DNA of 64,000 bases from Firmicutes bacterium UBA3570 (GCA_002376005.1 DFNJ01000022.1:42434-106433), one strand, 5' to 3'; shown: positions 713 to 61,722, counted from the stretch's first letter. Made by a program: numbers and translations. The notes: generated by a model from the letters alone, not told the origin.

Positions 713-1767
713 CAGCTTTCCTCCCGGGCATCCGGGGCGTCGGACGCCGGCTTCACCGGACCCAGATTGAGAGCCTGGCGGATCTTGGTCTCGATCTCAT
801 GGGCCAGCTCCGGCTCCGAGCGGAGGTAATCGCGGGCGTTCTCTCGTCCCTGCCCTAGCCTGAGGTCACCGTAGGAGTACCACGCGCCGCTCTTGGTGAT
901 GATGCCAGCCTCCACTCCGAGGTCCAGCAGGCACCCCTCGCGCGATATGCCTTCCCCGTATATGATGTCGAATTCGGCCTGTTTGAAGGGCGGTGCCACT
1001 TTGTTTTTGACCACCTTCACCCGGGTCCGACTGCCCAGGATCTCCGTCCCCTGCTTGAGGGTTTCTACTTTCCGCACCTCCATCCGCACCGTAGCGTAGA
1101 ACTTGAGCGCGCGGCCACCCGGCGTCACCTCGGGATTGCCGAAGATGACCCCTACCTTCTCCCGGATCTGGTTGATGAAGATGGCGGTGGTCTTGGACTT
1201 GGAAATCGCCCCTGCCAGCTTGCGCAAGGCCTGCGACATCAGCCGGGCCTGCAGCCCCACGTGGGCGTCACCCATCTCTCCCTCCAGCTCCGCCCGCGGC
1301 ACCAAGGCGGCCACCGAGTCGATGACCACCACGTCCACCGCACCGCTGCGCACCAGGGCTTCCGCAATCTCCAGCGCCTGTTCCCCGGTGTCCGGCTGGG
1401 ATATCAGGAGGTTGTCGATGTCCACGCCCACCCGGCGCGCATACGCGGGGTCCAGAGCGTGCTCCGCGTCGATGAACGCTGCCACTCCTCCCGCCTTTTG
1501 CGCCTCGGCGATGATGTGCAACGCCACCGTGGTTTTGCCGGACGCCTCGGGACCGTATATCTCCACCACCCGTCCCCGGGGGACTCCCCCTACCCCCAGG
1601 GCCAGATCAAGCGCCAGAGAACCCGTCGGTATCACCTCGACGTTCATCCGTGCCGACGCTTCGCCCAGCCTCATTATGGCCCCCTTGCCGAACTGCCGCT
1701 CGATTTGCGCCAGGGCCATCTCCAGGGCCTTTTCCTTCTCCGACAAGCTCCCACCCCCGCTTACCAT
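712..1767 (-). CDS. recA: Recombinase RecA
   Basis: 351 aa; unmistakable RecA sequence ([23 protein letters not shown], Walker [10 protein letters not shown], ...[29 protein letters not shown]...); strong RBS GGTGGAGG 7 nt upstream of the ATG at 1767. Confidence 0.97.
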
Positions 1768-1782
1768 ATATTTCCTCCACCA

Positions 1783-1810
1783 GTATACTGGAAGTCTTCC
1801 CGCCTCACAA
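1783..1810 (-). promoter_or_regulatory. recA promoter: -35 TTGTGA (1810-1805), 16-nt spacer, -10 TATACT (1788-1783); spacer contains palindrome GGAAGACTTCC (1790-1800)
   Basis: Read on minus strand ...TTGTGAggcgGGAAGACTTCCagTATACTggtggaggaaatatATG; lies in the 3' end of thpR. Confidence 0.45.
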
Positions 1811-2365
1811 GGAGCAATTCCCCCGGAACGCCACGCACCTCAGAGCCCGGTAGATGGGCCCAGTGGGTCGGAGTACGCTCTGGTACAGTATCATCTCCTG
1901 CACCAGCATCCGTCCCAGGATCCGTTTCGCTGTTGTCTCCAGCGCCCTCCGCGGGCAAGCGCCCTTCACGCGACCCAGGGTGAGGTGGGCGTGCCAGGGC
2001 CGCTCTTCCCCCGGCAGCCCCACCTGCACGGCGATGCGATTTACCTCCCGCGCCAGGGCCTCCAGTTCTGCCGCACCGGCAGGCACTCCCGCCCATATGA
2101 CCCGAGGCCGTCCCCGGGGTGGGAAGGTTCCCAGTCCCCCTATCTGTACCCAAAATGGAACCATCTTTTCGCCCAAGGATTCCAGTTGCTGGCCGAGACA
2201 GCTTGCCTGAGACTCGGGTATCTCGCCCAGGAAGCGCAAGGTGAGGTGAAGGTTTTCCCCTTCCACCCATTTGGCCCTGACGCCCTCCTGCTCCAGTTCC
2301 CGCTGCAGCTGGGTTGCGGCCTGCCGCACATCCTCGGACACCGGCACGGCCACGAAACATCTCAT
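1805..2365 (-). CDS. thpR: RNA 2',3'-cyclic phosphodiesterase / 2'-5' RNA ligase (2H phosphoesterase, ThpR/LigT)
   Basis: Two H-x-T-x motifs (HLTLRFLGE and HAHLTLGRV) in a ~186-aa protein starting MRCFVAVPV; the track's 236-aa ORF is over-extended from a TTG. Coordinates approximate to +/-1 nt. Confidence 0.7.
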
Positions 2366-2385
2366 TGCTCGTCCCTCCACCACAT

Positions 2386-3642
2386 TCAGGTCAGCCGCTG
2401 CAGGGTGAGATACAGCCACGCCAGAGATTCCATGGCCGCTCGCTGTCTGACCAGTTCCCGTGGTCCGGGGTACCATCTCTCGCGGAGCTTGGTGCCCCAG
2501 GGGCCCAGCAGGCAAGCATAAACGGTGCCCACCGGCCGGCCATCTTCTTCCCTGCCCGGCCCCGCCAAGCCGGTCAGGGCCAGCGACACGTCAGCCCCCA
2601 GCAGCCGCGCCACTCCTCGGGCCATGGCTTCGCTAACCTCTGGGCTCACCGGGCCGTAGCGCTCCAGGAGGTCTGGGCCAACTCCCAGCAGGCACCTCTT
2701 GGTCTCCTGATCGTAGGCCACCACGCCCCCGAGAAAGTACCGGGAGGCCCCCGGAGCGGAGACGATCAGATCCGCCACTCTCCCGCCGGTCACCGACTCG
2801 GCGGTGGCCAAGGTGAGCTGCCGTTGCACGAGCCGGGCACCCAGGGCGGCGGGTAGCGTCTGCTCGTCCACCCCGAAGACGTGGTCGCCCAGCGCTGCCC
2901 GCAGATTAGCCTCTGCCCTCGCCAGCTGCTCCTGTCCACGGGGACCGGGTTGGGTAGCTGTCAGCCGTACCTGTATCTCACCGGGAAAGGAGTAGATCCC
3001 CACTTCCACGCCGGTCAGGGAGATTTGGGATATGCGGTGCTGGACCTGCGCTTCTCCCATCCCGCATACGCGCAACGTCATGGTTGGCGCGGGCCTTGGC
3101 CGCTCCCCCGGCAGCTGGCTGAGCAGCACCTTCTCGGCGTGCTCTGTCCACATCGTCCTGAGCTCGTGCGGCGGACCGGGAAGGCAGATCAACAGCTTCT
3201 GCTGCCAGCGCAGCCAGAACCCGGGGGCGGTACCCACCGAGTTGGGCAGCGGACTGGCTCCCTGCGGCAGCCGCGCTTGACGGAGATCTTCCTCCTGCGG
3301 TATGCCACCTCTCCGGCAGTACAGCTGGCGGGTGCTATCCCATAGCTGGGGTCGGAACTGGAGGGATAAGCCGAGGGCAGAACACACCGCCTCCCGGGTG
3401 AGATCGTCGCCGGTGGGGCCGAGCCCGCCGGTGACAATGACCACCTTCACTCGCGACAAGGACTGCCGAATGGTCTCGTCAATCTCCTCCACCCGGTCAC
3501 CAACTGTGTGTACCGCCCGCACGCGAAACCCGAGTTCGTGCAGGCGGCTGCCCAGGTAGACCGCGTTGGTGTTCACCACCGACCCGTCGAGCAGTTCCTC
3601 TCCCACGCACACGATCTCGACTGCAGTCAGCCGCCTCACCAC
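2386..3642 (-). CDS. cinA: Competence/damage-inducible protein CinA (MocF-like N-domain + CinA/PncC C-domain)
   Basis: 418 aa; N-terminal VEIVCVGEELLxG...VVIVTGGLGPTxDDLT (MoaB/MogA-like) and C-terminal LATAESxTGG...CinA domain; GTG start; classic cinA-recA neighbourhood. Confidence 0.88.
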   Translation of the reverse strand: MVRRLTAVEIVCVGEELLDGSVVNTNAVYLGSRLHELGFRVRAVHTVGDRVEEIDETIRQSLSRVKVVIVTGGLGPTGDDLTREAVCSALGLSLQFRPQLWDSTRQLYCRRGGIPQEEDLRQARLPQGASPLPNSVGTAPGFWLRWQQKLLICLPGPPHELRTMWTEHAEKVLLSQLPGERPRPAPTMTLRVCGMGEAQVQHRISQISLTGVEVGIYSFPGEIQVRLTATQPGPRGQEQLARAEANLRAALGDHVFGVDEQTLPAALGARLVQRQLTLATAESVTGGRVADLIVSAPGASRYFLGGVVAYDQETKRCLLGVGPDLLERYGPVSPEVSEAMARGVARLLGADVSLALTGLAGPGREEDGRPVGTVYACLLGPWGTKLRERWYPGPRELVRQRAAMESLAWLYLTLQRLT

Positions 3643-3774
3643 CCGCCGTCATCTTCGCCGTGGTGGCCGCGACCACCTGCCTAGCGTAGTAAGGGAAGGG
3701 GTTCTACCAGGAGCGCAAGCACAGGTGGCATCTTGGTTGGAAGTGCCCCAGGGTGGTAAGGAATCGCCGATCTG

Positions 3775-3799
3775 GCGGCAACGAAGAGGACGTTGCCGC
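3775..3799. repeat. Perfect 9-bp GC-rich inverted repeat (GCGGCAACG-aagagga-CGTTGCCGC), stable stem-loop in the cinA upstream gap
   Basis: Read directly from the sequence; both arms exactly complementary, 7-nt loop; no U-tract on either strand so not a canonical intrinsic terminator. Confidence 0.5.
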
Positions 3800-4000
3800 T
3801 CCCTTCGTTCGGCAACCTGGCTTCCGGGCGGGGTCCCGCTGCTCACAGCCCTGGCGGCCCGCGGCCAACCCGACCACGTCGCCTCTGGGAAGCTCAGGAG
3901 AGAGGCGGGAGCCAAGGGGAGGCAGTTGCTCCAGGAGGCGCTGGATCTCGGCCCTACGGGCCGGGTACTGGCCTGGGACAGGTGGAATCAGTTCCACCTG

Positions 4001-4303
4001 ATGATGGCCCGCGGGCCGAATGCATACTGTTGCCTGGTCCTGGTGCTCGAGGATACACCCGACGGGCAACTCGACCCTCACGGAGGGATCCGCTTCAGGC
4101 GCGCGCTCCGCGCAGGGCAGCTGCGCGAGCACAGCTTCGACGTCGCCCTGGGCAACGATGGTCCTGCTGTTCTGTGGGCATTCGTTGCCCGGAACGCGCA
4201 CGCCGTGGAGGTCTTCTACGGCAGGATCGTCCGGAAGGAGACCGCAGGAAAGTCGGGAGCAATCGTCGTCCTTGAGCCCCAGCCGAGCCCCGCTGGTAAA
4301 TGA
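4001..4303 (+). CDS. Hypothetical small protein (100 aa from ATG 4001; alternative TTG start 3926 gives 125 aa)
   Basis: Only frame in the 1.2 kb gap with gene-like codon-position GC pattern (GC1 and GC3 high, GC2 ~47%, counted by hand) and non-repetitive amino-acid composition; no recognisable family; weak RBS. Confidence 0.25.
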   Translation: MMARGPNAYCCLVLVLEDTPDGQLDPHGGIRFRRALRAGQLREHSFDVALGNDGPAVLWAFVARNAHAVEVFYGRIVRKETAGKSGAIVVLEPQPSPAGK

Positions 4304-4830
4304 CCCGAACTAGGCCGGATGAGGGCCCTGGATGCCCACGGGCGGGCACTCCGAGAGCAGCTAGCCCTGTCGGGTACTGAAAACGCCTGGTGTGGACGAA
4401 GCCCCGCAACACCACTACCCAAAGGCAGGGTGTTCCTGGCGACCCAGGAAGCCAGCCGGAAGCTGCGAGCCCATGCGCACGAACTTCGGACGCGCTCGGG
4501 TAGCTTGGGCAAGTCCGCAGGGCAAGCAAGCCGCAGACCGTCCATGGGCCCGTGACCCAAACACGGTGGTTGGCAGGGAAACCACTCGCTCCTGCCCCAG
4601 GAGGGCGTCACTTTATGCCCACGACGGCAGCCAAGAGGCTGCACTGAGGTGACAGACCCCGAGCTCCCGGTACCCGCAGGCACCGAGCAGGCGCAGTTCG
4701 ATAGCTTCAGGGCGTCGTTGCGACTGCCAGACCACACCGCCGGCAGGCGTCCGGGTGCCGGATGGGAGGCAATCCTGCTTTCCCCGGCCGTTACCACGCA
4801 GGCCGTAGCGCACTCTCACAGCCAGGTAGG

Positions 4831-6315
4831 TCAATCTCGATGGGCCGTTTCCTCCGCCTCTTGAAGCATCTGTCGTAGTTCGTCGCCGCTCAGCCGTTCC
4901 TTTTGAGCCAGCTGTTCAGAAACATGCACCAGGAGGCGACGCCTCCCTTCCAGCAGCTGGCGAACCCGCTTCTCCTCAGTCGCCAGTACTTCCCGTACCG
5001 TGCTGAACATTACGTCCCGGGGGATGCTTTCCGCATCCACAATTCCCAGGGGACTCAATCCCGACAAAACCAGGCGCCGTGCCAGGCGCGCTGCCTGATC
5101 GAAGTCGTCGGCGGCACCCGTACTTCGCGTGCCGCACACCAGTTCTTCTGCCACCGCCCCGCCCAGGAGGGCGGCAATTTCCACCCCGATCTCCTGGGGA
5201 CAAAACAGACGGCGGTCACGGTCGCGCCGGTGCCGCACGTATCCCAAGCTAGCTCCCCGCGGGGACACCGCCACCGCGGACACCGAGCCGGGCCGCAGTA
5301 GCTCGCTGACCAGGGCGTGCCCGGCTTCGTGGACTGCCACCCGAAGCAGCTCCTCCCGAGTGGGCACTCGGTCGCTCTTTTCACCCATCAGAACCTTCTC
5401 CACCGCTTCGCGGAAGTGCTGCTGGCTTATGCGATCCCGGCCGGCCCGCAGGGCGAGGATGGCGGCCTCGTTGGCCACCATCTCCAGGTGAGCCCCCGAA
5501 AAGCCAAAGGTCTCGCCGGCGATCTCCGCCAGGTCCACGTCGCAGTCCAAAGGCTTGTCCCGAGTGTGAAGCTTCAGGATGCTCAGGCGCCCCTCGCGGT
5601 CGGGAAGAGGAACCTGCAGGATCCGGTCAAACCGTCCGGGTCTCAGGAGTGCTTCATCCAGCAAATCCGCTCGGTTGGTGGCACCGATCACCAGTATCCG
5701 GATCTCGTCATCGGGACCAAGACCGTCCATCTCCACCAACAGCTGGTTCAGGGTCTGGTCGTACTCCAAATGAGAGGAGTGCCTGCCGCGCTTGCCTCCC
5801 AGCACCTCCAGCTCGTCGATGAAAACGATGGCACTGTTCTTCCCCCTGGCTCGGGCCAGTTCTCTGGCCCGCTGGAAGAGAGATCTCACCCGCTGGGCGC
5901 CAACTCCCGCGTACACCTCCACGAACTCGCTGCCGGAAGCGCTGACGAAAACCGAGTCCGTGTGGGTAGCCGCCGCCTTGGCCAACATGGTCTTGCCGGT
6001 CCCAGGAGGACCGGTGAGCAGGATGCCCCGTATGGGGCGTATTCCCAGCTGCCGTACGCGGCGGGCACACTTCAGGAAATCCAGTGCTTCCCTCAGCTCA
6101 CGCTTGGCTGGCTCCTGGCCTCCGATGTCTGAGAAGGTCACGCCGGTTGCGCCCGCGGCGGCGCCCACAGTGGCCCGCTGGCTGAAGGCACCTCCCGACA
6201 GTCCCACCGCCCGCGACAGGACGTAAAGCAACCCCCCCAGAAACAGCAGGGGCCACAGGTTATAGCCGCGCAGGATGCAGAACAGCAGCAAGCCCGCGGC
6301 GACGCCCAGCGCCAC
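4831..6315 (-). CDS. FtsH-like AAA+ ATP-dependent zinc metalloprotease, short form (494 aa, TM hairpin, no periplasmic domain)
   Basis: Walker A GPPGTGKT, Walker B IVFIDELE, second region of homology ATNRADLLDEALLRPGRFDR, zinc site HEAGHA; N-terminal two hydrophobic helices separated by 2 residues. Confidence 0.85.
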   Translation of the reverse strand: MALGVAAGLLLFCILRGYNLWPLLFLGGLLYVLSRAVGLSGGAFSQRATVGAAAGATGVTFSDIGGQEPAKRELREALDFLKCARRVRQLGIRPIRGILLTGPPGTGKTMLAKAAATHTDSVFVSASGSEFVEVYAGVGAQRVRSLFQRARELARARGKNSAIVFIDELEVLGGKRGRHSSHLEYDQTLNQLLVEMDGLGPDDEIRILVIGATNRADLLDEALLRPGRFDRILQVPLPDREGRLSILKLHTRDKPLDCDVDLAEIAGETFGFSGAHLEMVANEAAILALRAGRDRISQQHFREAVEKVLMGEKSDRVPTREELLRVAVHEAGHALVSELLRPGSVSAVAVSPRGASLGYVRHRRDRDRRLFCPQEIGVEIAALLGGAVAEELVCGTRSTGAADDFDQAARLARRLVLSGLSPLGIVDAESIPRDVMFSTVREVLATEEKRVRQLLEGRRRLLVHVSEQLAQKERLSGDELRQMLQEAEETAHRD

Positions 6316-6323
6316 GTCCAGCT

Positions 6324-6857
6324 TCAGCGTGGTTCACCCCCCAGGGATGCTGTCCAGGGGCAGACCTGGTACAGCCAGTGGTCGCCCTGCTGAAGGCTGA
6401 CGTAAACTGCATGGTCATCCACCTGAAGGGTGCAGTCCACTCCCGACTGCCGGGCCAGGGCTAGTGCGCGCTCCCGCATCTCGGTGAGTCGACCGGTGGC
6501 CAGCCCTTCGTAGATGATGAAGCTCATCCCTTCCCAACAGCTGGCCAGCTCGGCACTGGGATTGTCCACGATCACCAACCGAAAGGGCTGCTCGCCCAGG
6601 GTGCGCCGACTGATGTCCTGCAATTCGGTCCAGACGGCGCGTAAATCCTGCCCGGGTGCCAGGTGCGCGTAGGCGATCACCTCATTCGCCCGCACGGTTA
6701 CCCGTGCGTCCACCACTCCCGGCATCTCTCCAAAGGCGCGCTCCAGCGGCATCTGCCACCGCTGGCTTCGCCACAGGGTGCTTCCCGCCAGCAGCAGGCC
6801 GACCACCGCCACCGCGGTCAGAATCACCACCGGAATGCGTCTCTCCTTCCACCACAA
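6324..6857 (-). CDS. Hypothetical membrane-anchored protein (177 aa, single N-terminal TM)
   Basis: ORF tightly packed (8-nt gap) upstream of the FtsH-like gene; N-terminal hydrophobic helix VVILTAVAVVGLLLAG; no family recognised. Confidence 0.5.
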   Translation of the reverse strand: MWWKERRIPVVILTAVAVVGLLLAGSTLWRSQRWQMPLERAFGEMPGVVDARVTVRANEVIAYAHLAPGQDLRAVWTELQDISRRTLGEQPFRLVIVDNPSAELASCWEGMSFIIYEGLATGRLTEMRERALALARQSGVDCTLQVDDHAVYVSLQQGDHWLYQVCPWTASLGGEPR

Positions 6858-6936: not shown

Positions 6937-8262
6937 CTAGCAAGACGGGGGAAGCAACTCCGCGAAGAGGTCGTAGCCGTGGTTGCCCACCACCCGCACC
7001 TTCACGAATGTGCCGGGAGTGGGACATCGGCCGAAAATGTAGGTAATGCCGTCCACCTCCGGCGCTTGCCTCCAGATCCGGCCCCGCGCGAGACCATCAG
7101 AGATTATCTCCTCCACCACCGCTTCGGCGATCATACCCACCAGCCGGCGGTTGGCGCGGTGGGCCACCTGCCAGGCCTGCCTGATCAGCCGACGGCGGCG
7201 CCGCTCGCGAACGGCGACCGGAACCTGAGGCCTCATGCGGGCGGCAGCCGTTCCTTCCTCGGGACTGAAAGCGAAGACCCCCACGTGGTCCAGCCGGAAC
7301 CGCCGCACGAAGGCCAACAATGCCAGGAAATCCTCCCAACCCTCTCCGGGATGACCCACCATGAAGGTGGCGCGTATGGAAGGATCATGCAGGTAATTCC
7401 GAACCATGGCGATGCACCTGCCCGGATGGCCGAGGTCGGCCCTGCCCATTCTGCGCAGCACCCGCGGGCTGGCGTGCTGGAACGGAATGTCCAAATATGG
7501 CAGGGTGCGCCGCGACCCGGCCATCACCCGCAGCAACCGGGGGGTGATGCCCGCGGGGTGGGCGTACATGAGTCGTATCCACCTCACGGGTAGCTGATCC
7601 ATCTCGACCAACAGATCGACGAGATCCGGTCCCCCCGGAACGTCCCGCCCATAGCTGGTGGTATCCTGGGCCACCAGGATCAGCTCGCCCACTCCCCGCT
7701 GGGCCAGCTTGCGAGCCGCCCCCAGCACCTCCTCCAGGGGACGGCTGTGCACTTTTCCCTTGATGGCGGGAATGGTGCAGTAAGAACAACCACGATCGCA
7801 CCCGTCTCCCAGTAACAGATACCCGTAATGTGCTGGGGTGCTGAGGATTCGATCCGCGGAAGCTGTCGCCGAGGGAATCCGACGCTCCATCTGCCCGTGA
7901 AGGGCCTGCCACACCCGGCGAGCCACCAAGTGGTACTCATTGGCTCCCAGCCACAGGTCCACCTCCGGAAGTGCACGTCGGGCCTCGCTGCCGTAGCGGG
8001 CAGGGAGACACCCCACCACCGCCAGCAACTGACAGCGGCCGCTCCGGCGGTACTGCGCGCAGCGCAGGATGGCATCCACCGACTCCTGGGCGGCGTCCTC
8101 GATGAAGGCACAGGTGTTGACCACGATGACATCCGCATCCTCCGGGTTGGGGTGTGGCTGCAGGCCCGCGGCGGCCAGCGCCCCCAGCATTTCCTCGCAG
8201 TAGACGCGATTCTTGTCGCACCCCAGCCAGATCACGCACGCCCGCAGCTGCCTCGCCGACAC
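6937..8262 (-). CDS. rimO: Ribosomal protein S12 methylthiotransferase RimO (radical SAM MiaB family + TRAM)
   Basis: 441 aa; N-terminal MTTase domain (WLGCDKNRVYCEEM...VNTCAFI), radical-SAM CxxxCxxC (CDRGCSYC), C-terminal TRAM; position upstream of cinA as in Clostridia. Confidence 0.85.
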   Translation of the reverse strand: MSARQLRACVIWLGCDKNRVYCEEMLGALAAAGLQPHPNPEDADVIVVNTCAFIEDAAQESVDAILRCAQYRRSGRCQLLAVVGCLPARYGSEARRALPEVDLWLGANEYHLVARRVWQALHGQMERRIPSATASADRILSTPAHYGYLLLGDGCDRGCSYCTIPAIKGKVHSRPLEEVLGAARKLAQRGVGELILVAQDTTSYGRDVPGGPDLVDLLVEMDQLPVRWIRLMYAHPAGITPRLLRVMAGSRRTLPYLDIPFQHASPRVLRRMGRADLGHPGRCIAMVRNYLHDPSIRATFMVGHPGEGWEDFLALLAFVRRFRLDHVGVFAFSPEEGTAAARMRPQVPVAVRERRRRRLIRQAWQVAHRANRRLVGMIAEAVVEEIISDGLARGRIWRQAPEVDGITYIFGRCPTPGTFVKVRVVGNHGYDLFAELLPPSC

Positions 8263-8265
8263 CCT

Positions 8266-9387
8266 TCACGCGCCCCTCCGGGAGGCCAGGATCTCCCGGT
8301 AGAACTCTTCATACGCGTCCACCAGGCGTTGGGCATCGAATTGTTCCGCTCGCCGTCGCGCACCTTCCGAGTAGTCCTCCCAGACCCCTTGCTCGGACAT
8401 GATCTGCACCGCGCTACGCGCCATCCCTTCGAGGTCCTCCACTTCATGCAGCCGCCCGGAGTGCTCATCCACCACTTCCGGCAGCCCCCCCACCCTGCTC
8501 GCCACCACCGGGACCCCGCAGGCCATGGCTTCCAGGGCGGCCAGACCGAAGCTTTCCTGCGCGGAGGGCAACAGAAACAGATCGGCCACCGACAGCAGTG
8601 GCACCAAATCGTCCTGACGTCCCACGAACAGTACTGCCTCCTCCAGCCCCAGTTCCCTCGTACGCCTGCGGGCCGCCGGGACATCGGGGCCATCGCCCAC
8701 CAGGAGCAGGCGTACCGGCAGATACTCGCGGATCTGAGCCACAATCTCCACCACCGCCAGCACCCTCTTGACCGGACGGAAATTGGATACGTGAATGACG
8801 ATCTTCTCCCCACCAGGGGCGAAACAGCGCCGGAGCTCGGGATTGGGACGCCTCCGGTACGCCTGCAGGTCAACGAAGTTGGGAATCACCCGGATGGGTC
8901 GGTGAACGGTGAAGCGACGGTAGGTTTCCGCCCGCAAACTCCGCGAAACCGCAGTTACCCCGTCGCTGCGATTGATGGCAAAGCTGATTATTTCGCTAAA
9001 AGAGGGATCCGACCCTACCAGGGTGATGTCCGTCCCATGCAGGGTGGTGATGGTGACCACTTCAGGTACCAGCTGTTTCGCCAAGTAGCTGCTGACCGCA
9101 TGCGGTATGGCGTAATGGGCGTGTATGATGTCCAGACACCCGTAGCGCGCCAGCTCCACCAGCTTGTTGGTCAGGGCCAGCACGTAAGGAGGATATTTGA
9201 ACAAGGGGTAGGTGGGTACCTCCACCTGATGAAAGATGATGGCGTGCTGGTACCCGCGTAGCCTGAAGGGCAGCTCGTAGCTGACGAAATGCACCTGATG
9301 GCCGCGAGCTGCCATGGCCTTTCCCAGCTCGCTGGCCACCACGCCCGATCCTCCATAGGAAGGATAGCACACCACGGCAATCCTCAT
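8266..9387 (-). CDS. bshA: N-acetyl-alpha-D-glucosaminyl L-malate synthase BshA (GT4 glycosyltransferase)
   Basis: Start [22 protein letters not shown] typical of BshA; GT4 C-terminal [20 protein letters not shown]; coupled to bshB1 (shared nucleotide at 9387). Confidence 0.8.
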
Positions 9388-10100
9388 CAGTCGGGTCTGC
9401 CTCCTCGTCCCAGGAACACATCCAGGTCGTCCACCCACCAGCCACCGGCCATCATGAACCCCTCCGCCGCCTCCACCCCCCGCAGGGCGCCGAAGTACCG
9501 GTCCCGGGCGAGGATGTACTGCAGGTAGGCAGGCCGGTTGAGAACGGTAACGCGGCGACCGCGCGGACAGAACTGCGAACGGTAGGTGGCCAGCGCCTTC
9601 CTCTTGAGGTGGTGAACGCCACTGACGTCTACCAGCACCTGGGGATGCGTATGCTCGTTGATGAAGTACTGCAAGATCACCCGCGGTCGCCAGGGTTCCC
9701 CCGGAACCCGGTACCGGGGGAGGCCGGCCAGGTGTGCTGCCCGGGGGAGCAACTGGCCCGCCACCTGATGATCGGGGTGCCGGTCCCGGTGGTACGGGCC
9801 CATGAGGATCTGCGGCCGGTGGCTTCTTACCGCCGCCACCACCTGCCGGAGCGACGAGGCCGCTTCCAGCTGCCCGTCGGGCAACCCCGCGCAGTGCCGC
9901 TCGGCTACCCCCAGAAGCCGGGCCGCCTGGCGGGCTTCCGCCTCTCGTTCCTCAGGGCTGGCGTTGCTGGCCATCTCTCCCCGCGTCAGGTCCAAGATGA
10001 CCACCCGCCAGCCCTGCGAGGCGGCCAGCGCCAGGGTTCCGCCGCACCCCAGCTCGGCGTCGTCTGGGTGGGGCGCGATCACCAGCAGCGTGCGCTCCAT
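9387..10100 (-). CDS. bshB1: N-acetyl-alpha-D-glucosaminyl L-malate deacetylase BshB1 (LmbE/PIG-L family)
   Basis: LLVIAPHPDDAELGCGGTLA PIG-L signature; start trimmed to MERTLLV (ORF over-extended in the track); bshB1-bshA order as in B. subtilis. Confidence 0.75.
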   Translation of the reverse strand: MERTLLVIAPHPDDAELGCGGTLALAASQGWRVVILDLTRGEMASNASPEEREAEARQAARLLGVAERHCAGLPDGQLEAASSLRQVVAAVRSHRPQILMGPYHRDRHPDHQVAGQLLPRAAHLAGLPRYRVPGEPWRPRVILQYFINEHTHPQVLVDVSGVHHLKRKALATYRSQFCPRGRRVTVLNRPAYLQYILARDRYFGALRGVEAAEGFMMAGGWWVDDLDVFLGRGGRPD

Positions 10101-10156
10101 TCCTTCCGCTCCTCCTGCAGGAAAGTGCTTCTGCGCGTTCGGGCATGTTCCTTCCG

Positions 10157-10185
10157 TTGACGCAAACAACTGTTCGTGTTATGAT
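10157..10185 (+). promoter_or_regulatory. Sigma-A-type promoter for mrfA: TTGACG -17- TATGAT
   Basis: -35 TTGACG at 10157-10162, 17-nt spacer, -10 TATGAT at 10180-10185, then RBS GGGAGAGG 7 nt before the GTG at 10208. Confidence 0.45.
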
Positions 10186-10207
10186 CGAGTTCGGGAGAGG
10201 ATGAACG

Positions 10208-12466
10208 GTGGGGCAGTTTTGGGAGTTCCTGCTCGGCAATGAGCGGTTTCGCCGTAACCTGACCGCCTACCGGACGATTCCACCACAAACGCCGCACTGG
10301 GCCGATTTTCCCGCCGATTTGGATCCCCGGCTGCCCCGCGCACTGGCAGAACTGGGCATCCGAAGGCTGTATTCCCATCAGGCAGAAGCCTGCCGGGAAG
10401 CGATGAGAGGGCGCGATGTGGTGGTGGTCACCCCCACCGCCTCCGGCAAGACCCTCTGCTACAACTTGCCGGTGCTGGATGCGGTCCTGAAGAATCCCCA
10501 GACGCGGTCGCTTTACCTGTTCCCCACCAAGGCACTCTCCCAGGATCAGCTGGACGAGCTGCACGGGCTGATAGACCGTCTGCGCGAGCCAATACGCACC
10601 TTCACTTACGACGGTGACACTCCCGCTTCGGCACGGCCCACCATCAGGAAAGCAGCCCAGATCGTGGTCACTAACCCCGATATGCTGCACGTGGCCATCC
10701 TGCCACACCACACCAAATGGCTTCGCTTGTTTCAGAATTTGCGCTACGTGGTGATAGACGAACTGCACCAGTACCGGGGTGTATTTGGCAGCCACGTGGC
10801 TTGTGTCATCCGACGGTTGAACCGGTTGTGCGAATTTTATGGTTCGCGACCGACGTATATTTGCTGTTCTGCCACCATTGCCAACCCGGAGGAGATGGCC
10901 CAGCTTCTGTTGGGGAGACCGGTCCACCTGGTGGACCGGAGCGGTGCACCCAGGGGGGAGAAACACTTCTTCTTTTACAACCCGCCGGTGGTGAACCGAG
11001 AGTTAGGAATTCGCCGTTCCGCCCTGCTGGAGAGCAAGGAAATTGCCGCCCGGCTGGTGGAGGCGGGCGCCCAGACCATAGTGTTCTCCCGCAGCCGGCT
11101 CAACGTGGAGGTACTCTCCACCTACCTGAAGCACCGGTTTCCCCCCGGCCCGGGACAGAGAGAGGTGGTCAGGGGTTACCGGGGGGGATACCTGCCTCGA
11201 GAGCGGCGCGAGATCGAGCGGGACCTCCGGGAGGGACGGATCAAGGCGGTGGTTTCCACCAATGCCCTGGAACTGGGGATTGACATCGGGACCCTCAACG
11301 CTGCGGTGCTATGTGGCTATCCGGGGACTATAGCCAGCACCTGGCAGCAGGCGGGCCGGGCGGGGCGGGGCCAGGGGGCCAGCGTGGCGGTGCTGGTAGC
11401 GTCCAGCAGTCCCCTGGACCAGTTCATCATCACCCATCCCGACTATTTTTTCGCGCGCAGCCCGGAGCACGCCCTGTTGAATCCCGACAACCCGTACATC
11501 CTGGCCAGTCACTTGAAATGCGCGGCCTTCGAACTGCCCTTCCGGGTAGGGGAAAGCTTCGGCGGGCGTGACCCCAGTGAGTACCTGGAGGAGCTGGCCA
11601 AGCATCAGGTGCTTCACCGCAGCGGCGACCGCTACTATTGGGCCACCGAAGGCTTTCCGGCCGAAGAGGTGAGCCTGCGTTCGGCCACCTGGGAAAACTT
11701 CGTGGTGGTGGACATCAGCGACCAGCCCCGGGTCATAGGGGAAGTTGACCGCTTCAGCGCGCCCTTGCTCCTGCACGAGGAAGCCATATACCTTCACGAG
11801 GGGCAGCAATACCAGGTGGAGAAGCTGGACTACCCGGAGAAGAAGGCCTACGTGCGGCGCGTCCGCGTGAACTACTACACCGACGCCCAGCTGGCGGTGG
11901 ACGTGCAGGTGTTGGATGTGCTGGGAGACAGGGCCTCGCAGAGCTACCGCAGCCATTGGGGCGAGGTACTGGTACGGGCCCGCCCCACCATGTTCAAGAA
12001 AATCAAGTTCTACACCCACGAGAATCTGGGCACCGGCCCCATAAACTTGCCCGAAGAGCAGATGCACACCACCGCGTACTGGCTTTGCCTTACTGCCGCG
12101 CCGGCACGAGTGTCTCGTGAGGCCCTCCAGGGAGGATTGGCAGGGGTAGCGCAACTCCTGGCCAACGTGGCACCGCTGTACCTCATGTGCGATCCCGGCG
12201 ATCTGAGGGTTTTCCCCCAGGTGCGATCACCTTTCACCGAACTGCCCACCATATACCTCTATGACCGCTATCCGGGGGGGACGGGCTTGGCGGAACGCGC
12301 CTTCGAGCTGGAACAGCAGCTGCTGGAGGCCGCCGCTGAGCTGCTGGAGGGTTGCTCCTGCGCCTCCGGCTGTCCCTCTTGCGTGGGAGCTCCCCAGGAA
12401 GTGGGGGTGGAGGCCAAGGAGGCGGCACGGGCCATTCTCAGCATGCTGGTGGGTGAGCCGCGGTGA
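10208..12466 (+). CDS. mrfA: DEAD/DEAH-box helicase with C-terminal DUF1998 (MrfA/YprA-like, crosslink repair helicase)
   Basis: 752 aa; helicase motifs (TPTASGKT, DELH, SAT, VSTNALELGIDIG, QQAGRAGR) plus C-terminal four-Cys cluster GCSCASGCPSCVG characteristic of DUF1998. Confidence 0.8.
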   Translation: MGQFWEFLLGNERFRRNLTAYRTIPPQTPHWADFPADLDPRLPRALAELGIRRLYSHQAEACREAMRGRDVVVVTPTASGKTLCYNLPVLDAVLKNPQTRSLYLFPTKALSQDQLDELHGLIDRLREPIRTFTYDGDTPASARPTIRKAAQIVVTNPDMLHVAILPHHTKWLRLFQNLRYVVIDELHQYRGVFGSHVACVIRRLNRLCEFYGSRPTYICCSATIANPEEMAQLLLGRPVHLVDRSGAPRGEKHFFFYNPPVVNRELGIRRSALLESKEIAARLVEAGAQTIVFSRSRLNVEVLSTYLKHRFPPGPGQREVVRGYRGGYLPRERREIERDLREGRIKAVVSTNALELGIDIGTLNAAVLCGYPGTIASTWQQAGRAGRGQGASVAVLVASSSPLDQFIITHPDYFFARSPEHALLNPDNPYILASHLKCAAFELPFRVGESFGGRDPSEYLEELAKHQVLHRSGDRYYWATEGFPAEEVSLRSATWENFVVVDISDQPRVIGEVDRFSAPLLLHEEAIYLHEGQQYQVEKLDYPEKKAYVRRVRVNYYTDAQLAVDVQVLDVLGDRASQSYRSHWGEVLVRARPTMFKKIKFYTHENLGTGPINLPEEQMHTTAYWLCLTAAPARVSREALQGGLAGVAQLLANVAPLYLMCDPGDLRVFPQVRSPFTELPTIYLYDRYPGGTGLAERAFELEQQLLEAAAELLEGCSCASGCPSCVGAPQEVGVEAKEAARAILSMLVGEPR

Positions 12467-24694: not shown

Positions 24695-26350
24695 TCAACG
24701 CATGGGGATTCGGAGTCCCGCCCTTTCTGCCGCCCGTATCGCCCTTTCGTAACCGGCATCCGCGTGTCTCAGTATCCCCAGACCCGGATCGGCGTTCAGC
24801 ACCCGCTCCAGGCGGGCGTCCGCTTCCGTGGTTCCGTCCGCCACCACCACCATTCCCGCGTGCAGGGAATAACCGATGCCCACTCCGCCGCCGTGGTGAA
24901 CGGACACCCAGCTGGCCCCGCAGACGGCATTGAGGAGGGCATTCAAGATGGGCCAGTCAGCGATGGCATCGCTGCCGTCTCGCATGCCCTCCGTCTCCCG
25001 GTTGGGAGAAGCCACCGATCCCGCATCCAGGTGATCCCTGCCGATGACCACCGGGGCCTTGATCTTGCCCTCGCGCACCAGCTGGTTTATCGCCAGACCG
25101 AAACGCGCGCGTTCGCCGTAGCCCAGCCAGCAGATGCGGGCCGGCAGCCCCTGGAAGGGCACCTTGTCCCGGGCCTTCCGGATCCAGCGGGCCAGGGATT
25201 CATCTTCCGGGAACTCCCGCAGGACCACTTCGTCGGTGACGTAGATGTCCTGCGGATCGCCCGACAGGGCCACCCAGCGGAAGGGCCCGCGGCCCTCGCA
25301 GAACAGCGGGCGGATGTATGCAGGGACGAAGCCGGGGAAGGAAAAGGCTTCCTTCAGTCCCCCTTCCCGAGCCTGACCGCGGATGTTGTTTCCGTAATCG
25401 AAAACTACCGCACCCCTCATCTTGAACTCCACCATTGCCTGCACGTGGACCACCACACTGTCCCGGGCCCGCCGCAGGTACTCCTCCGGCTGGCGCTGCC
25501 GAAGCTCTCTCGCTTCTTGTACGGTTAGTCCGGCGGGGATGTACCCGTCCAGCAAGTCGTGCGCTGCGGTCTGGTCGGTGACCACGTCGGGGATGATGTT
25601 CCGGCGCGCCAGCTCCGGGTAGACCTCAGCGGCGTTCCCCAGCAGGGCTACCGACAATGCACGGCCCTCCGCGGCCGCCGACTGAACCAACCGCAGGGCC
25701 TCATCCAGGTCCTCGCAGGCGCGATCGCAGTATCCGATGTCCACTCTCCTGCGAATCCGCTCTGGATCCACTTCCACCACCAGCGCGGCACCCTCGTTCA
25801 TGGTGATGGCCATGGGTTGCGCGCCCCCCATGCCGCCCAACCCTGCCGACAGCACCCACTTGCCTTTGAGGGTTCCCCCGAAGTGCTGGCGGGCCACCTC
25901 CGCGAAGGTCTCGTAGGTACCCTGGAGGATCCCCTGAGTACCGATGTATATCCACGACCCGGCGGTCATCTGCCCGAACATGATCAGGCCCTTGGCCTCC
26001 AGCTTCCAAAACTCCTCCCAGTTGGCCCAGGCGGGTACCAGCAGCGAATTAGCTATGAGCACCCTCGGGGCCCACTGGTGGGTGGGAAGAACGCCCACCG
26101 GCTTGCCCGACTGTACCAGTAAGGTCTCGTCGTTTTCCAGCTCTTCCAGACACCGGACGATGGCCTCGAAGGCCTCCCAGTTGCGCGCCGCCTTGCCCGT
26201 CCCTCCGTAGACTATGAGCTGGTCGGGTTTCTCGGCCACCTCCGGGTCCAGATTATTCATCAGCATCCTGAGAGCGGCTTCCTGCTGCCACCCCTTGCAG
26301 CGCAGGGCCGTCCCTCGCGGTGCCCTCACCGTCCGCACCTTGGATTTCAC
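24695..26350 (-). CDS. hutU: Urocanate hydratase (urocanase family)
   Basis: 551 aa; full-length urocanase-family sequence with NAD-binding GGMGGAQP and conserved C-terminal half; GTG start with AGGAGGGGG RBS. Confidence 0.88.
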
Positions 26351-59833: not shown

Positions 59834-60748
59834 TCAGGGCGCAAACACTTTCTCCAGCCTCACTCTCCGTCCTGTCCTTCCGCCGTGCTCCATCCGTCCC
59901 ACCGCCACCAGGTTTCCCCGGTCGTCCACTATCCTGATCCCGCCTTCGGCATGGCCCGAAACCTGCGCTGCCAGTGCTTGGCCATCCCGCACCGGCAGGT
60001 CCCCGTGCCGGAGACGCCACAGCAGCTGGCGATCAGTCACCGTGACCCGCGGCCAGAACCAGAGCACCTCTGCCATCGGCACCATGAGTTTCTCCACCGC
60101 ATCTGCCTGAGCCACCTGCTCCAGCAGTGTCGCCTCTCGCAGGGAGAACGGTCCCACCCGGGTACGCACCAGAAACGAAAGATGTGCTCCGCAGCCCAGG
60201 GCTTCGCCCAGGTCACGGGCCAGCGCGCGGGCATACGTGCCACTGGAACATCGCATGTCCACAAGCGCCCGGGGGTGCTCTCCGGGCCACCAATGCAACA
60301 GCTCCAGCCGATGGATACGCACCTCTCGTTCCGGCGGCACCACCTGCTCCCCCCGGCGGGCCAATCGGTAGAGCCTCTCTCCCCCGACCTTAACCGCCGC
60401 ATAGCGGGGCACCCTCTGTCGTACTGTACCCCGAAATCTCTCCAGGTGCTGCCGTACTTCAGCCGGGGTGAGCCGCGAAGCATCCCGACACGTGGTGACC
60501 TTCCCTTCGGCGTCCCCCGTCTCGGTAGCAATGCCGAAGGTGAATTCCATGCGGTAGGATTTGTCCAGCCTCACCAGGTACTCGGCCAGTCGAGTGGCCG
60601 CACCGACGCAACACAGCAACAGCCCTGCTGCCTGACGATCCAGTGTACCGGCATGCCCCACCCTTCGACCCAGACGACGGCGTAGCCAGGCCACGACATC
60701 GTGGGAAGTCATGCCCGGCGGTTTCAGGATCAGCAACATCCCGTTCAT
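59834..60748 (-). CDS. truB: tRNA pseudouridine(55) synthase TruB
   Basis: MNGMLLILKPPGMTSHDVVAWLRR...GHAGTLD catalytic motif; start trimmed. Confidence 0.85.
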   Translation of the reverse strand: MNGMLLILKPPGMTSHDVVAWLRRRLGRRVGHAGTLDRQAAGLLLCCVGAATRLAEYLVRLDKSYRMEFTFGIATETGDAEGKVTTCRDASRLTPAEVRQHLERFRGTVRQRVPRYAAVKVGGERLYRLARRGEQVVPPEREVRIHRLELLHWWPGEHPRALVDMRCSSGTYARALARDLGEALGCGAHLSFLVRTRVGPFSLREATLLEQVAQADAVEKLMVPMAEVLWFWPRVTVTDRQLLWRLRHGDLPVRDGQALAAQVSGHAEGGIRIVDDRGNLVAVGRMEHGGRTGRRVRLEKVFAP

Positions 60749-61722
60749 CCGCGCGCTTGGGCCACCACCTGCTCGACTCTGCGTATAACGGTTTCCACCA
60801 CCGACCACAACGGCCCCTCCAGGACGCAGCCTGCCGCTCGAGGGTGTCCTCCACCCCCCCACTCTCGTGCCAGTGCAGCCACGTCGGTGCAGCGCCGCGA
60901 GCGAAAAGTAACGCGGACCTGTCCGTCCTCCATTTCCCGAAACAAGACCGCCACCTCGACTCCGGCGATAGTACGGGGATAGTCCACCAGACCCTCGCAG
61001 TCTCCGTCCGTCGCCCCCACCTCGCGCATCATGCGTCGGCTGATGACCATCCAGGCCACGGTACCCTCATGACTCAAACGCAGGGTATCCAGCCCTTTGC
61101 CCAGCAGCTTCAGCGCCGCCAGCCGGCGCCGCTCGAACAGATTTTCCACCACCTCGCGCGGCCGGGCCCCCATTCTGACCAGTTCTCCCGCGATGCGGTG
61201 GGTAATGGCTGTGGTGTTCTGGTAGGAAAAAGACCCGGTATCGGTGACCAGGGCCGCGTACAGGCAAGTGGCTGCCTTGTCATCAATGGGCAATCCCGCC
61301 TCCACCAATAATCTGAACACCTGCTCCCCTACCGCAGCCGCCGAAGGATCCACGTAATTGAGATCACCAAACTGCTCGTTGGTGATGTGGTGATCGATGT
61401 TGACCACCGTCCTGCAGCGGTGTAGCAGCTTGGCCGCCTCCCCCAGGCGGCGTGGGTGGGTGGTGTCGAGCACCATCCCCGCCCCCAGAGGGCCCTCAGG
61501 TAGCATGTGGGGAGTGAGCACCTCGCCCGCCCCCGGCAGGAAACGGTAATGTGGCGGTATCTCGTCAGTACTCACCACCAGCACTTGCCTACCAGCAGTG
61601 CGCAACACCCAGGCCAGCCCCAGGGAGGATCCCACCGTATCGCCGTCCGGCAACCGGTGAAGGAGCAGCAAGAAGCGAGATTCCCGCTTGAGCAAATCCA
61701 CGATGGCTCCGAAGTCATCCAT
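60745..61722 (-). CDS. nrnA: DHH-family phosphoesterase NrnA (oligoribonuclease / pAp phosphatase)
   Basis: DHH motifs (LHRLPDGDTVGS, VNIDHH), DHHA1 C-domain with GGGH; start trimmed to MDDFGAIV. Confidence 0.75.
   Translation of the reverse strand: MDDFGAIVDLLKRESRFLLLLHRLPDGDTVGSSLGLAWVLRTAGRQVLVVSTDEIPPHYRFLPGAGEVLTPHMLPEGPLGAGMVLDTTHPRRLGEAAKLLHRCRTVVNIDHHITNEQFGDLNYVDPSAAAVGEQVFRLLVEAGLPIDDKAATCLYAALVTDTGSFSYQNTTAITHRIAGELVRMGARPREVVENLFERRRLAALKLLGKGLDTLRLSHEGTVAWMVISRRMMREVGATDGDCEGLVDYPRTIAGVEVAVLFREMEDGQVRVTFRSRRCTDVAALAREWGGGGHPRAAGCVLEGPLWSVVETVIRRVEQVVAQARG

Follow-up and report, generated by a model that had tools for sequence, protein, structure and literature searches.

Genes are closely spaced in the 64,000-nt stretch of DNA from Firmicutes bacterium UBA3570 analyzed here (the window; GC content 65-67%). 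The median intergenic distance is 38 nt, as measured with a crude phase-based gene caller. Between cinA (2386-3642, minus strand) and the gene of a short, 494-aa FtsH-like AAA/M41 protein (4831-6315, minus strand), 1188 nt are left (3643-4830). What do they contain? The first-pass annotation described this gap as a stretch with no confident gene in a tightly packed chromosome. The gene coordinates confirm the gap, and no other interval of the window that lacks a family-assignable gene is as large. However, the absence of a confident gene did not hold: public gene calls already place an ORF of 192 or 125 aa there, and this ORF has paralogues. Two other large 'gaps' produced by the crude caller are real genes, a 551-aa ORF (24695-26350) and a 342-aa ORF (59834-60862), whose translations look like those of hutU and truB, respectively. 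The window is identical to contig DFNS01000151.1 of GCA_002376165.1, an uncultured Bacillota metagenome-assembled genome (MAG), and to a contig of ENA ERZ529318.

The interval in distant Bacillota

The gap interrupts a series of genes on the minus strand. rimO (6937-8262) is followed by the gene of a 177-aa membrane protein (6324-6857), which belongs to no Pfam or NCBIfam family and is located directly upstream of the FtsH-like gene. The latter ends with a TGA at 4831-4833. On the other side of the gap, cinA is followed by a LigT-type gene, recA and recX. The first-pass annotation expected pgsA between rimO and cinA and regarded the locus as odd. We compared it with 80 loci from distant Bacillota, in which the short FtsH-like protein is 50-61% identical. 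A search of genome contigs with the FtsH-like protein found no closer relatives, none exceeding 61% identity. The order rimO, 177-aa protein, short FtsH-like protein, cinA and recA recurs in dozens of these organisms, and the argument from pgsA therefore fails. What sets this organism apart is the additional ~1 kb, not the gene order. The 177-aa protein and the short FtsH-like protein, usually encoded before cinA and recA, are kept together across dozens of distant Bacillota MAGs and isolates. By its conservation, the pair looks like a module of two genes.

In 45 loci, cinA directly follows the FtsH-like gene on the same strand. The spacer between them has a median length of 111 nt and ranges from 3 to 547 nt, apart from a single spacer of 1070 nt. 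A homologue of the ORF in the gap is present in none of the 80 loci. A tblastx comparison of the gap with these loci produced scattered, non-collinear and GC-rich matches whose E-values derive from sum statistics, and they were dismissed as compositional noise. The two largest spacers among the relatives hold extra genes. In one (L062), a 328-aa ORF with the motif GRWGNFFNQELFG is located on the opposite strand (9409-10395, minus strand). In the other (L082), a stand-alone 185-aa ORF is found (9491-10048, plus strand). Read from their translations, they look like lgt and a CinA-C/PncC-type pncC, respectively. Since both spacers also carry an extra gene, the spacer between the FtsH-like gene and cinA appears to be a recurrent insertion site. 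Like the window, these loci accept a gene on either strand with the order from rimO to recA unbroken. Unlike the window ORF, to which they are unrelated, the two inserts are housekeeping-type genes by their look.

A plus-strand ORF and its two paralogues

Long ORFs were noted in all six frames of the gap. They are expected at 66% GC, and most of them lack codon phase. This would agree with the gap being pure spacer and its ORFs artefacts of GC composition, a description that is adequate for 4361-4830. It is refuted for 3791-4360, where the plus-strand ORF has highly significant paralogues and a clear codon phase, and for the gap as a whole its probability is negligible.

The ORF (P0001/P0004 in the gene calls L001 and L002; public label, hypothetical protein) encodes 192 aa and occupies 3725-4303 on the plus strand. 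Its frame is open from 3566. The two candidate starts are the GTG at 3725, with an AGGAG 11 nt upstream of it (3709-3713), and a TTG at 3926, which is preceded by an RBS-like GGGGAGG and gives the 125-aa version called by one assembly (3926-4303). The first-pass annotation singled out this frame by its codon-position GC. The signal is real, with GC1/2/3 of 0.72/0.47/0.77 over 3926-4303, and the frame is the true coding frame. The proposed starts at 4001 or 3926 are too late, because homology already begins at 3791 and the coding region is longer (3791-4360). Three-base phase in codon-position GC is found only between about 3820 and 4300, and the coding score is positive only in this frame, at 3841-4220. 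A minus-strand ORF (3704-4201) shares the codon phase and the low-GC second position, and was considered as a gene. Homology is found in the plus frame only, and the minus-strand ORF is therefore a shadow of the plus-strand gene. Since the ORF has paralogues in its own frame, the plus strand is the sense strand.

The ORF was also said to match no known family, and database searches agree. No ORF in the gap matches Pfam or NCBIfam at E≤1, and no protein at the locus of its paralogues matches Pfam at this threshold. The sole Pfam match at E≤10 is a chance-level one (E 2) to one of the paralogues, P0002. A word-indexed homologue search returned only the ORF itself. Using phmmer against 1.84 billion representative proteins, we recovered only the ORF and P0002, with an E-value of 2.6e-23 and 44% identity over the whole 161-aa query. 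BLASTP aligned the two with 41% identity and an E-value of 5e-35. P0002 (217 aa, L085 6124-6777) and its tandem neighbor P0003 (234 aa, L085 6978-7682) are encoded in the ilvC-nadA interval on contig DFNS01000057.1 of the same MAG, GCA_002376165.1. They are 62% identical to each other, and the window copy is 40-44% identical to them. A profile built from the three sequences recovered only these three from 5.8 billion clusters, and the family is so far known, from sequence databases, only in this organism.

The relationship extends over the full length of the proteins. In tblastn, residues 14-209 of P0002 align with the window from 3791 to 4360 (E 6.5e-40), and residues 44-224 of P0003 from 3827 to 4360 (E 8.6e-42). 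Both alignments read through the stop of the ORF. Frameshift-tolerant alignment of 3791-4360 with the paralogues scored 310-328, compared to a mean of 40 for shuffled sequences. Only in-frame gaps are found across 170 aligned codons, and the ORF is intact for 192 codons. The three-way alignment contains 58 invariant columns. The identity covers the whole β-domain and the helix preceding it in the window copy, including the shared motifs GP..RV.AW..W.Q.HL..ARG, LE..PDG, G.DGPA, VAR..H.VEV.F.GR..RKET.G.S and LE..PSP. The full-length similarity among the three proteins is significant and places them in one family. It is almost certain that the ORF is a genuine coding, or formerly coding, paralogue. 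An ancestral N-terminus in another frame ('PSSSPWWPR', 3646-3672) was considered. Its score was reached by one of 200 shuffles with P0002 and there was no signal with P0003, and it is probably due to chance.

Between ilvC and nadA, five unannotated small genes form an islet that ends with P0002 and P0003 (L085 5155-7682, also L084 and L086). The five genes encode 73, 72, 150, 217 and 234 aa. The islet has a GC content of 0.49-0.62, compared to ~0.65 for the genome. Several of its genes encode signal-peptide or TM-like N-termini, and none belongs to a Pfam family. A variant of P0002 with about a dozen substitutions (~95% identity; P0007/P0010, on contigs of 1328 and 3935 nt) is present in other samples, and a second strain of the organism is therefore represented in public data. 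No contig of this strain over the cinA gap was found, and cluster look-ups returned neither the variant strain at this locus nor a longer, read-through version of the ORF.

The two ends of the window copy

Large differences between the window copy and its paralogues are found at both ends. P0002 and P0003 have strongly hydrophobic signal peptides that end in a lipobox (…LLLVTVGAC and …LLVTMVGAC). The lipoboxes, LVTVGAC and VTMVGAC, were identified by inspection, and the proteins are putative lipoproteins. The equivalent region in the window copy (3812-3862, plus strand) is degenerate. In the protein and DNA alignments it reads ATWLPGGVPLLTALAA-R, with …VPLLTALAAR at its end, and LAAR aligns with the VGAC of both paralogues. 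The lipobox Cys codon (TGT or TGC) is aligned with CGC, encoding Arg (3860-3862), and the TALAAR sequence does not fit the lipobox pattern [LVI][ASTVIG][GAS]C. The n-region, RQRRGRCRSLRS, is strongly basic. The hydrophobic core is broken by two Pro and two Gly, and the mean Kyte-Doolittle value of ATWLPGGVPLLTALAA, calculated by hand, is ~1.3, compared to ~3.0 for VVWVLGVILLLVTVGA in P0002. Judging from its sequence, the leftover VPLLTALAA could still serve as a Sec signal.

At the other end, an in-frame TGA (4301-4303) cuts the ORF short, and the paralogues, which retain the full C-terminus, extend about 27-33 codons further. The copies of the locus in the window, L001 and L002 are identical, including this TGA. 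Homology continues beyond it in the same frame for 19 codons (57 nt, 4304-4360), where PELGRMRALDAHGRALREQ aligns with LVVTEVRALNAKGELLEKQ in the predicted C-terminal β-strands of the paralogues. Seven of these 19 codons are identical, about the same proportion as in the rest of the alignment, which suggests that the stop is recent compared to the duplication. A disabling stop with homology on its far side, here the TGA and the 19 codons after it, is a hallmark of pseudogenes. Programmed read-through of the UGA, as in a selenoprotein, was rejected. The TGA is aligned with a Pro codon in both paralogues, not with Cys or Sec; TGA also serves as the ordinary stop of the adjoining FtsH-like gene, and reading the sequence by eye identified no convincing hairpin directly downstream.

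An AlphaFold2 model of P0002 based on the three-sequence alignment (mean pLDDT 63) predicts a signal or TM helix, a second helix and an all-β domain. The best-modeled strands, at residues 191-199 and 205-215 (pLDDT ~88-91), are in the part removed by the stop. A Foldseek search of the PDB with this model gave a best E-value of 0.02 and TM-scores of at most 0.32, and no fold family could be assigned. The single-sequence model of the 125-aa version is uninformative (pLDDT 43).

Codon usage in the window copy is also atypical. The log-likelihood ratio of sense versus antisense codons is 0.05-0.07 per codon, compared to 0.25-0.27 in the paralogues. It is at least 0.17 in nine correctly framed small genes tested, and does not fall below 0.08 when long genes are read in 100-codon windows. 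GC2 is 0.52-0.53 in the window copy and 0.47-0.48 in the paralogues. In contrast to the tandem arrangement of P0002 and P0003, the window copy stands alone and antisense within the rimO-recA gene string.

With dS near saturation (1.2-1.4), dN/dS is 0.37-0.41 between the window copy and its paralogues and 0.31 between P0002 and P0003. Three-point arithmetic on these distances, subject to the same saturation, gives ~0.43 for the branch of the window copy. A metagenome scan with cinA found only the same organism, on a low-coverage marine-sediment contig (L083, OSAI01001772) that aligns with 1163-4002 of the window. Compared to the window, it has an indel and two nonsynonymous differences in 360 nt of the gap, near the contig end, and one difference in 1257 nt of cinA. 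The same contig shows 92 differences (15%) in the covered 605 nt of recA and none in the LigT-type gene, which points to a chimeric assembly, or to a recA that is recombinant or a strain variant.

The first-pass annotation listed a novel small protein and a decayed gene remnant among its candidates. Both are alive, now in the form of a divergent paralogue that has lost the lipobox Cys and whose homology runs past a premature TGA. The ORF may encode a functional, neofunctionalised protein (192 aa, or 125 aa with the start at TTG 3926). It would be a β-sandwich that has lost both its lipid anchor and its C-terminal tail, and would be expressed divergently from cinA. Its frame of 192 codons is open, the core motifs of the family are conserved, dN/dS is well below 1, the coding score is positive, RBS-like sequences precede both candidate starts and independent pipelines call it as a gene. 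Moreover, a 15% C-terminal truncation is no proof of lost function. However, the stop appears to be young and removes the best-modeled part of the fold, the lipobox is lost, and the codon bias is near zero, unlike that of the correctly framed small genes. The L083 differences in the gap point in the same direction, as a weak argument from near a contig end. We consider a functional protein a serious but lesser possibility. Because the lipobox is lost, a young stop cuts into the fold and the codon bias has collapsed, we judge it slightly the likelier case that the copy is now crippled or decaying. That function is lost, and when the stop arose, are both inferred from these features.

The window copy resembles known bacterial pseudogenes of duplicated genes in its stop relative to intact paralogues, the homology downstream of it, a lost motif and a composition drifting to the background. 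It differs from them in having a single lesion and no frameshift, and in its dN/dS of ~0.4. The inactivation, if real, would therefore be recent.

Hairpins, the remaining DNA and the origin of the insertion

Several hairpins are found in the gap. The first, a perfect 9-bp GC-rich hairpin at 3775-3799 (GCGGCAACG-aagagga-CGTTGCCGC), was reported by the first-pass annotation, and it is indeed locally stable (z -2.3 and -2.6). Two further stem-loops reported there, at 4575-4610 and 4741-4763, fold no better than shuffled sequences (z +0.1 and +0.9). Perfect hairpins of at least 9 bp are not enriched in the window, with 3 observed and ~4.7 in shuffles, and two of the three fall in the gap. The second is a perfect 9-bp palindrome (3979-4000) inside the ORF, over R-W-N-Q-F-H-L. 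It extends GGTGG…CCACC, which is imposed by the W-K-Q-Y-H-L codons and present in the paralogues too. Homology to the paralogues starts with the 3' arm of the first hairpin, CGTTGCCGC, whose 9 nt are the codons R-C-R, and P0002 (L085 6163-6179) agrees with the window at 15 of 17 nt there. The 5' arm of the hairpin is an exact inverted copy just outside the homology. We speculate that the duplicated segment may have its 5' breakpoint at this hairpin, which could be, for example, a small inverted repair copy.

The gap also includes two non-coding parts. The first, 82 nt between the start of cinA (3642, minus strand) and the GTG of the ORF (3643-3724), is divergent, has no coding potential in any frame and presumably holds the 5' region or promoter of cinA. 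Scans for consensus sigma-70 promoters and for terminators identified none inside the gap. No LexA (Cheo) box is found in the non-coding parts of the gap, and the sole match with two mismatches in this interval, at 4126-4139, is inside the ORF. Elsewhere in the window, CAAACAACTGTTCG (10163-10176) matches the Firmicutes LexA (Cheo) box CGAACNNNNGTTCG with one mismatch. It straddles the start of a minus-strand ORF (9387-10169) and is ~30 nt upstream of a plus-strand gene for a 752-aa DEAD/Hrq1-like helicase (10208-12466).

The second part is 470 nt at the convergent 3' ends of the ORF and the FtsH-like gene (4361-4830). It shows sustained coding potential in no frame, and its RNA folding is not in excess of that of shuffled sequences (z -0.8 and -1.2). 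The first-pass annotation proposed a structured RNA and a search of Rfam. We scanned 3000-5500 on both strands with cmscan and found no match at E≤1; no tRNA or tmRNA genes were found. The 470 nt have no other explanation and the two perfect hairpins are locally stable (z -2.3 to -3.5). The gap, especially 4361-4830 or the hairpin at 3775-3799, could be imagined to encode a structured RNA that has escaped recognition, or a leader that regulates cinA-recA in cis. However, each of the two hairpins overlaps the ORF, and conserved codons largely dictate one of them. The 5' region of cinA (3643-3790, minus strand) folds like random sequence (z +0.16), and the absence of the segment from all relatives means that covariation is not demonstrable. 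Such an RNA is very unlikely.

We also considered that the gap might be what a mobile element or prophage left behind, or the scar of a larger duplication in which the other genes have decayed. The insertion is lineage-specific, and the locus of the paralogues resembles a low-GC islet. Paralogue N-termini gave weak tblastn matches to the minus strand at 4551-4724 (E 0.25-0.66). Against this, a second decayed copy at this position was rejected, as its frameshift-tolerant scores of 37-42 are inside those of shuffles (~40±6). Alignments of the whole 4361-4830 region with the paralogue locus are likewise within the shuffle range on both strands. Neither the flanks of the paralogue locus nor plasmids and phages show DNA similarity to the gap. 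Terminal repeats, whether direct or inverted, were not found, nor were target-site duplications, tandem repeats or further copies in the window or L084. A scar of this kind has little probability, and 4361-4830 is best described as spacer, which keeps two convergent gene ends apart and has no other detectable function.

Taken as a whole, the observations are explained by a lineage-specific insertion that contains a truncated, decaying third paralogue. We assign this reading, decay included, a probability of about one half. The FtsH-like gene and cinA, which a short spacer normally separates, would have been moved apart by an insertion of about 1 kb. The core of the insertion would be the plus-strand gene at 3725-4303, antisense to the surrounding operon, which would have originated by duplication within a family of putative extracytoplasmic lipoproteins whose other two members form the ilvC-nadA tandem. 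The copy was probably under coding evolution for most of its history. Later, it would have lost the lipid-anchor Cys (TGY to CGC), its signal peptide would have weakened and its composition would have drifted toward that of the genome. Most recently, the TGA would have removed the last two strands of the predicted β-domain. The outcome would be a gene in early decay, a young pseudogene or a crippled paralogue, and the 57 nt after the stop would be a relic of its C-terminus.

A more far-reaching possibility is that the truncated, anchor-less copy is a functional new soluble or cytoplasmic β-sandwich encoded antisense to rimO-ftsH-cinA-recA, or that 4361-4830 is a lineage-specific non-coding RNA, or both. 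We consider this improbable. If true, the extent to which transcripts of the FtsH-like gene read through into cinA-recA could be modulated when this RNA or the antisense gene is transcribed.

The ORF was already known as a hypothetical protein, and its relationship to the tandem pair and the homology past its stop are new. The insertion is an ordinary feature of genome evolution rather than a new RNA or system, and it matters little beyond annotation. Nevertheless, an unexplained 1.2 kb now has a concrete description, and the arrangement of rimO, a short FtsH and cinA need no longer be seen as unusual. The window copy would neatly illustrate a paralogue shortly after it acquired a disabling stop, while the homology past the stop is still readable. 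The analysis also flags an orphan family of putative lipoproteins, which has three members and so far comes from one uncultured Bacillota lineage.
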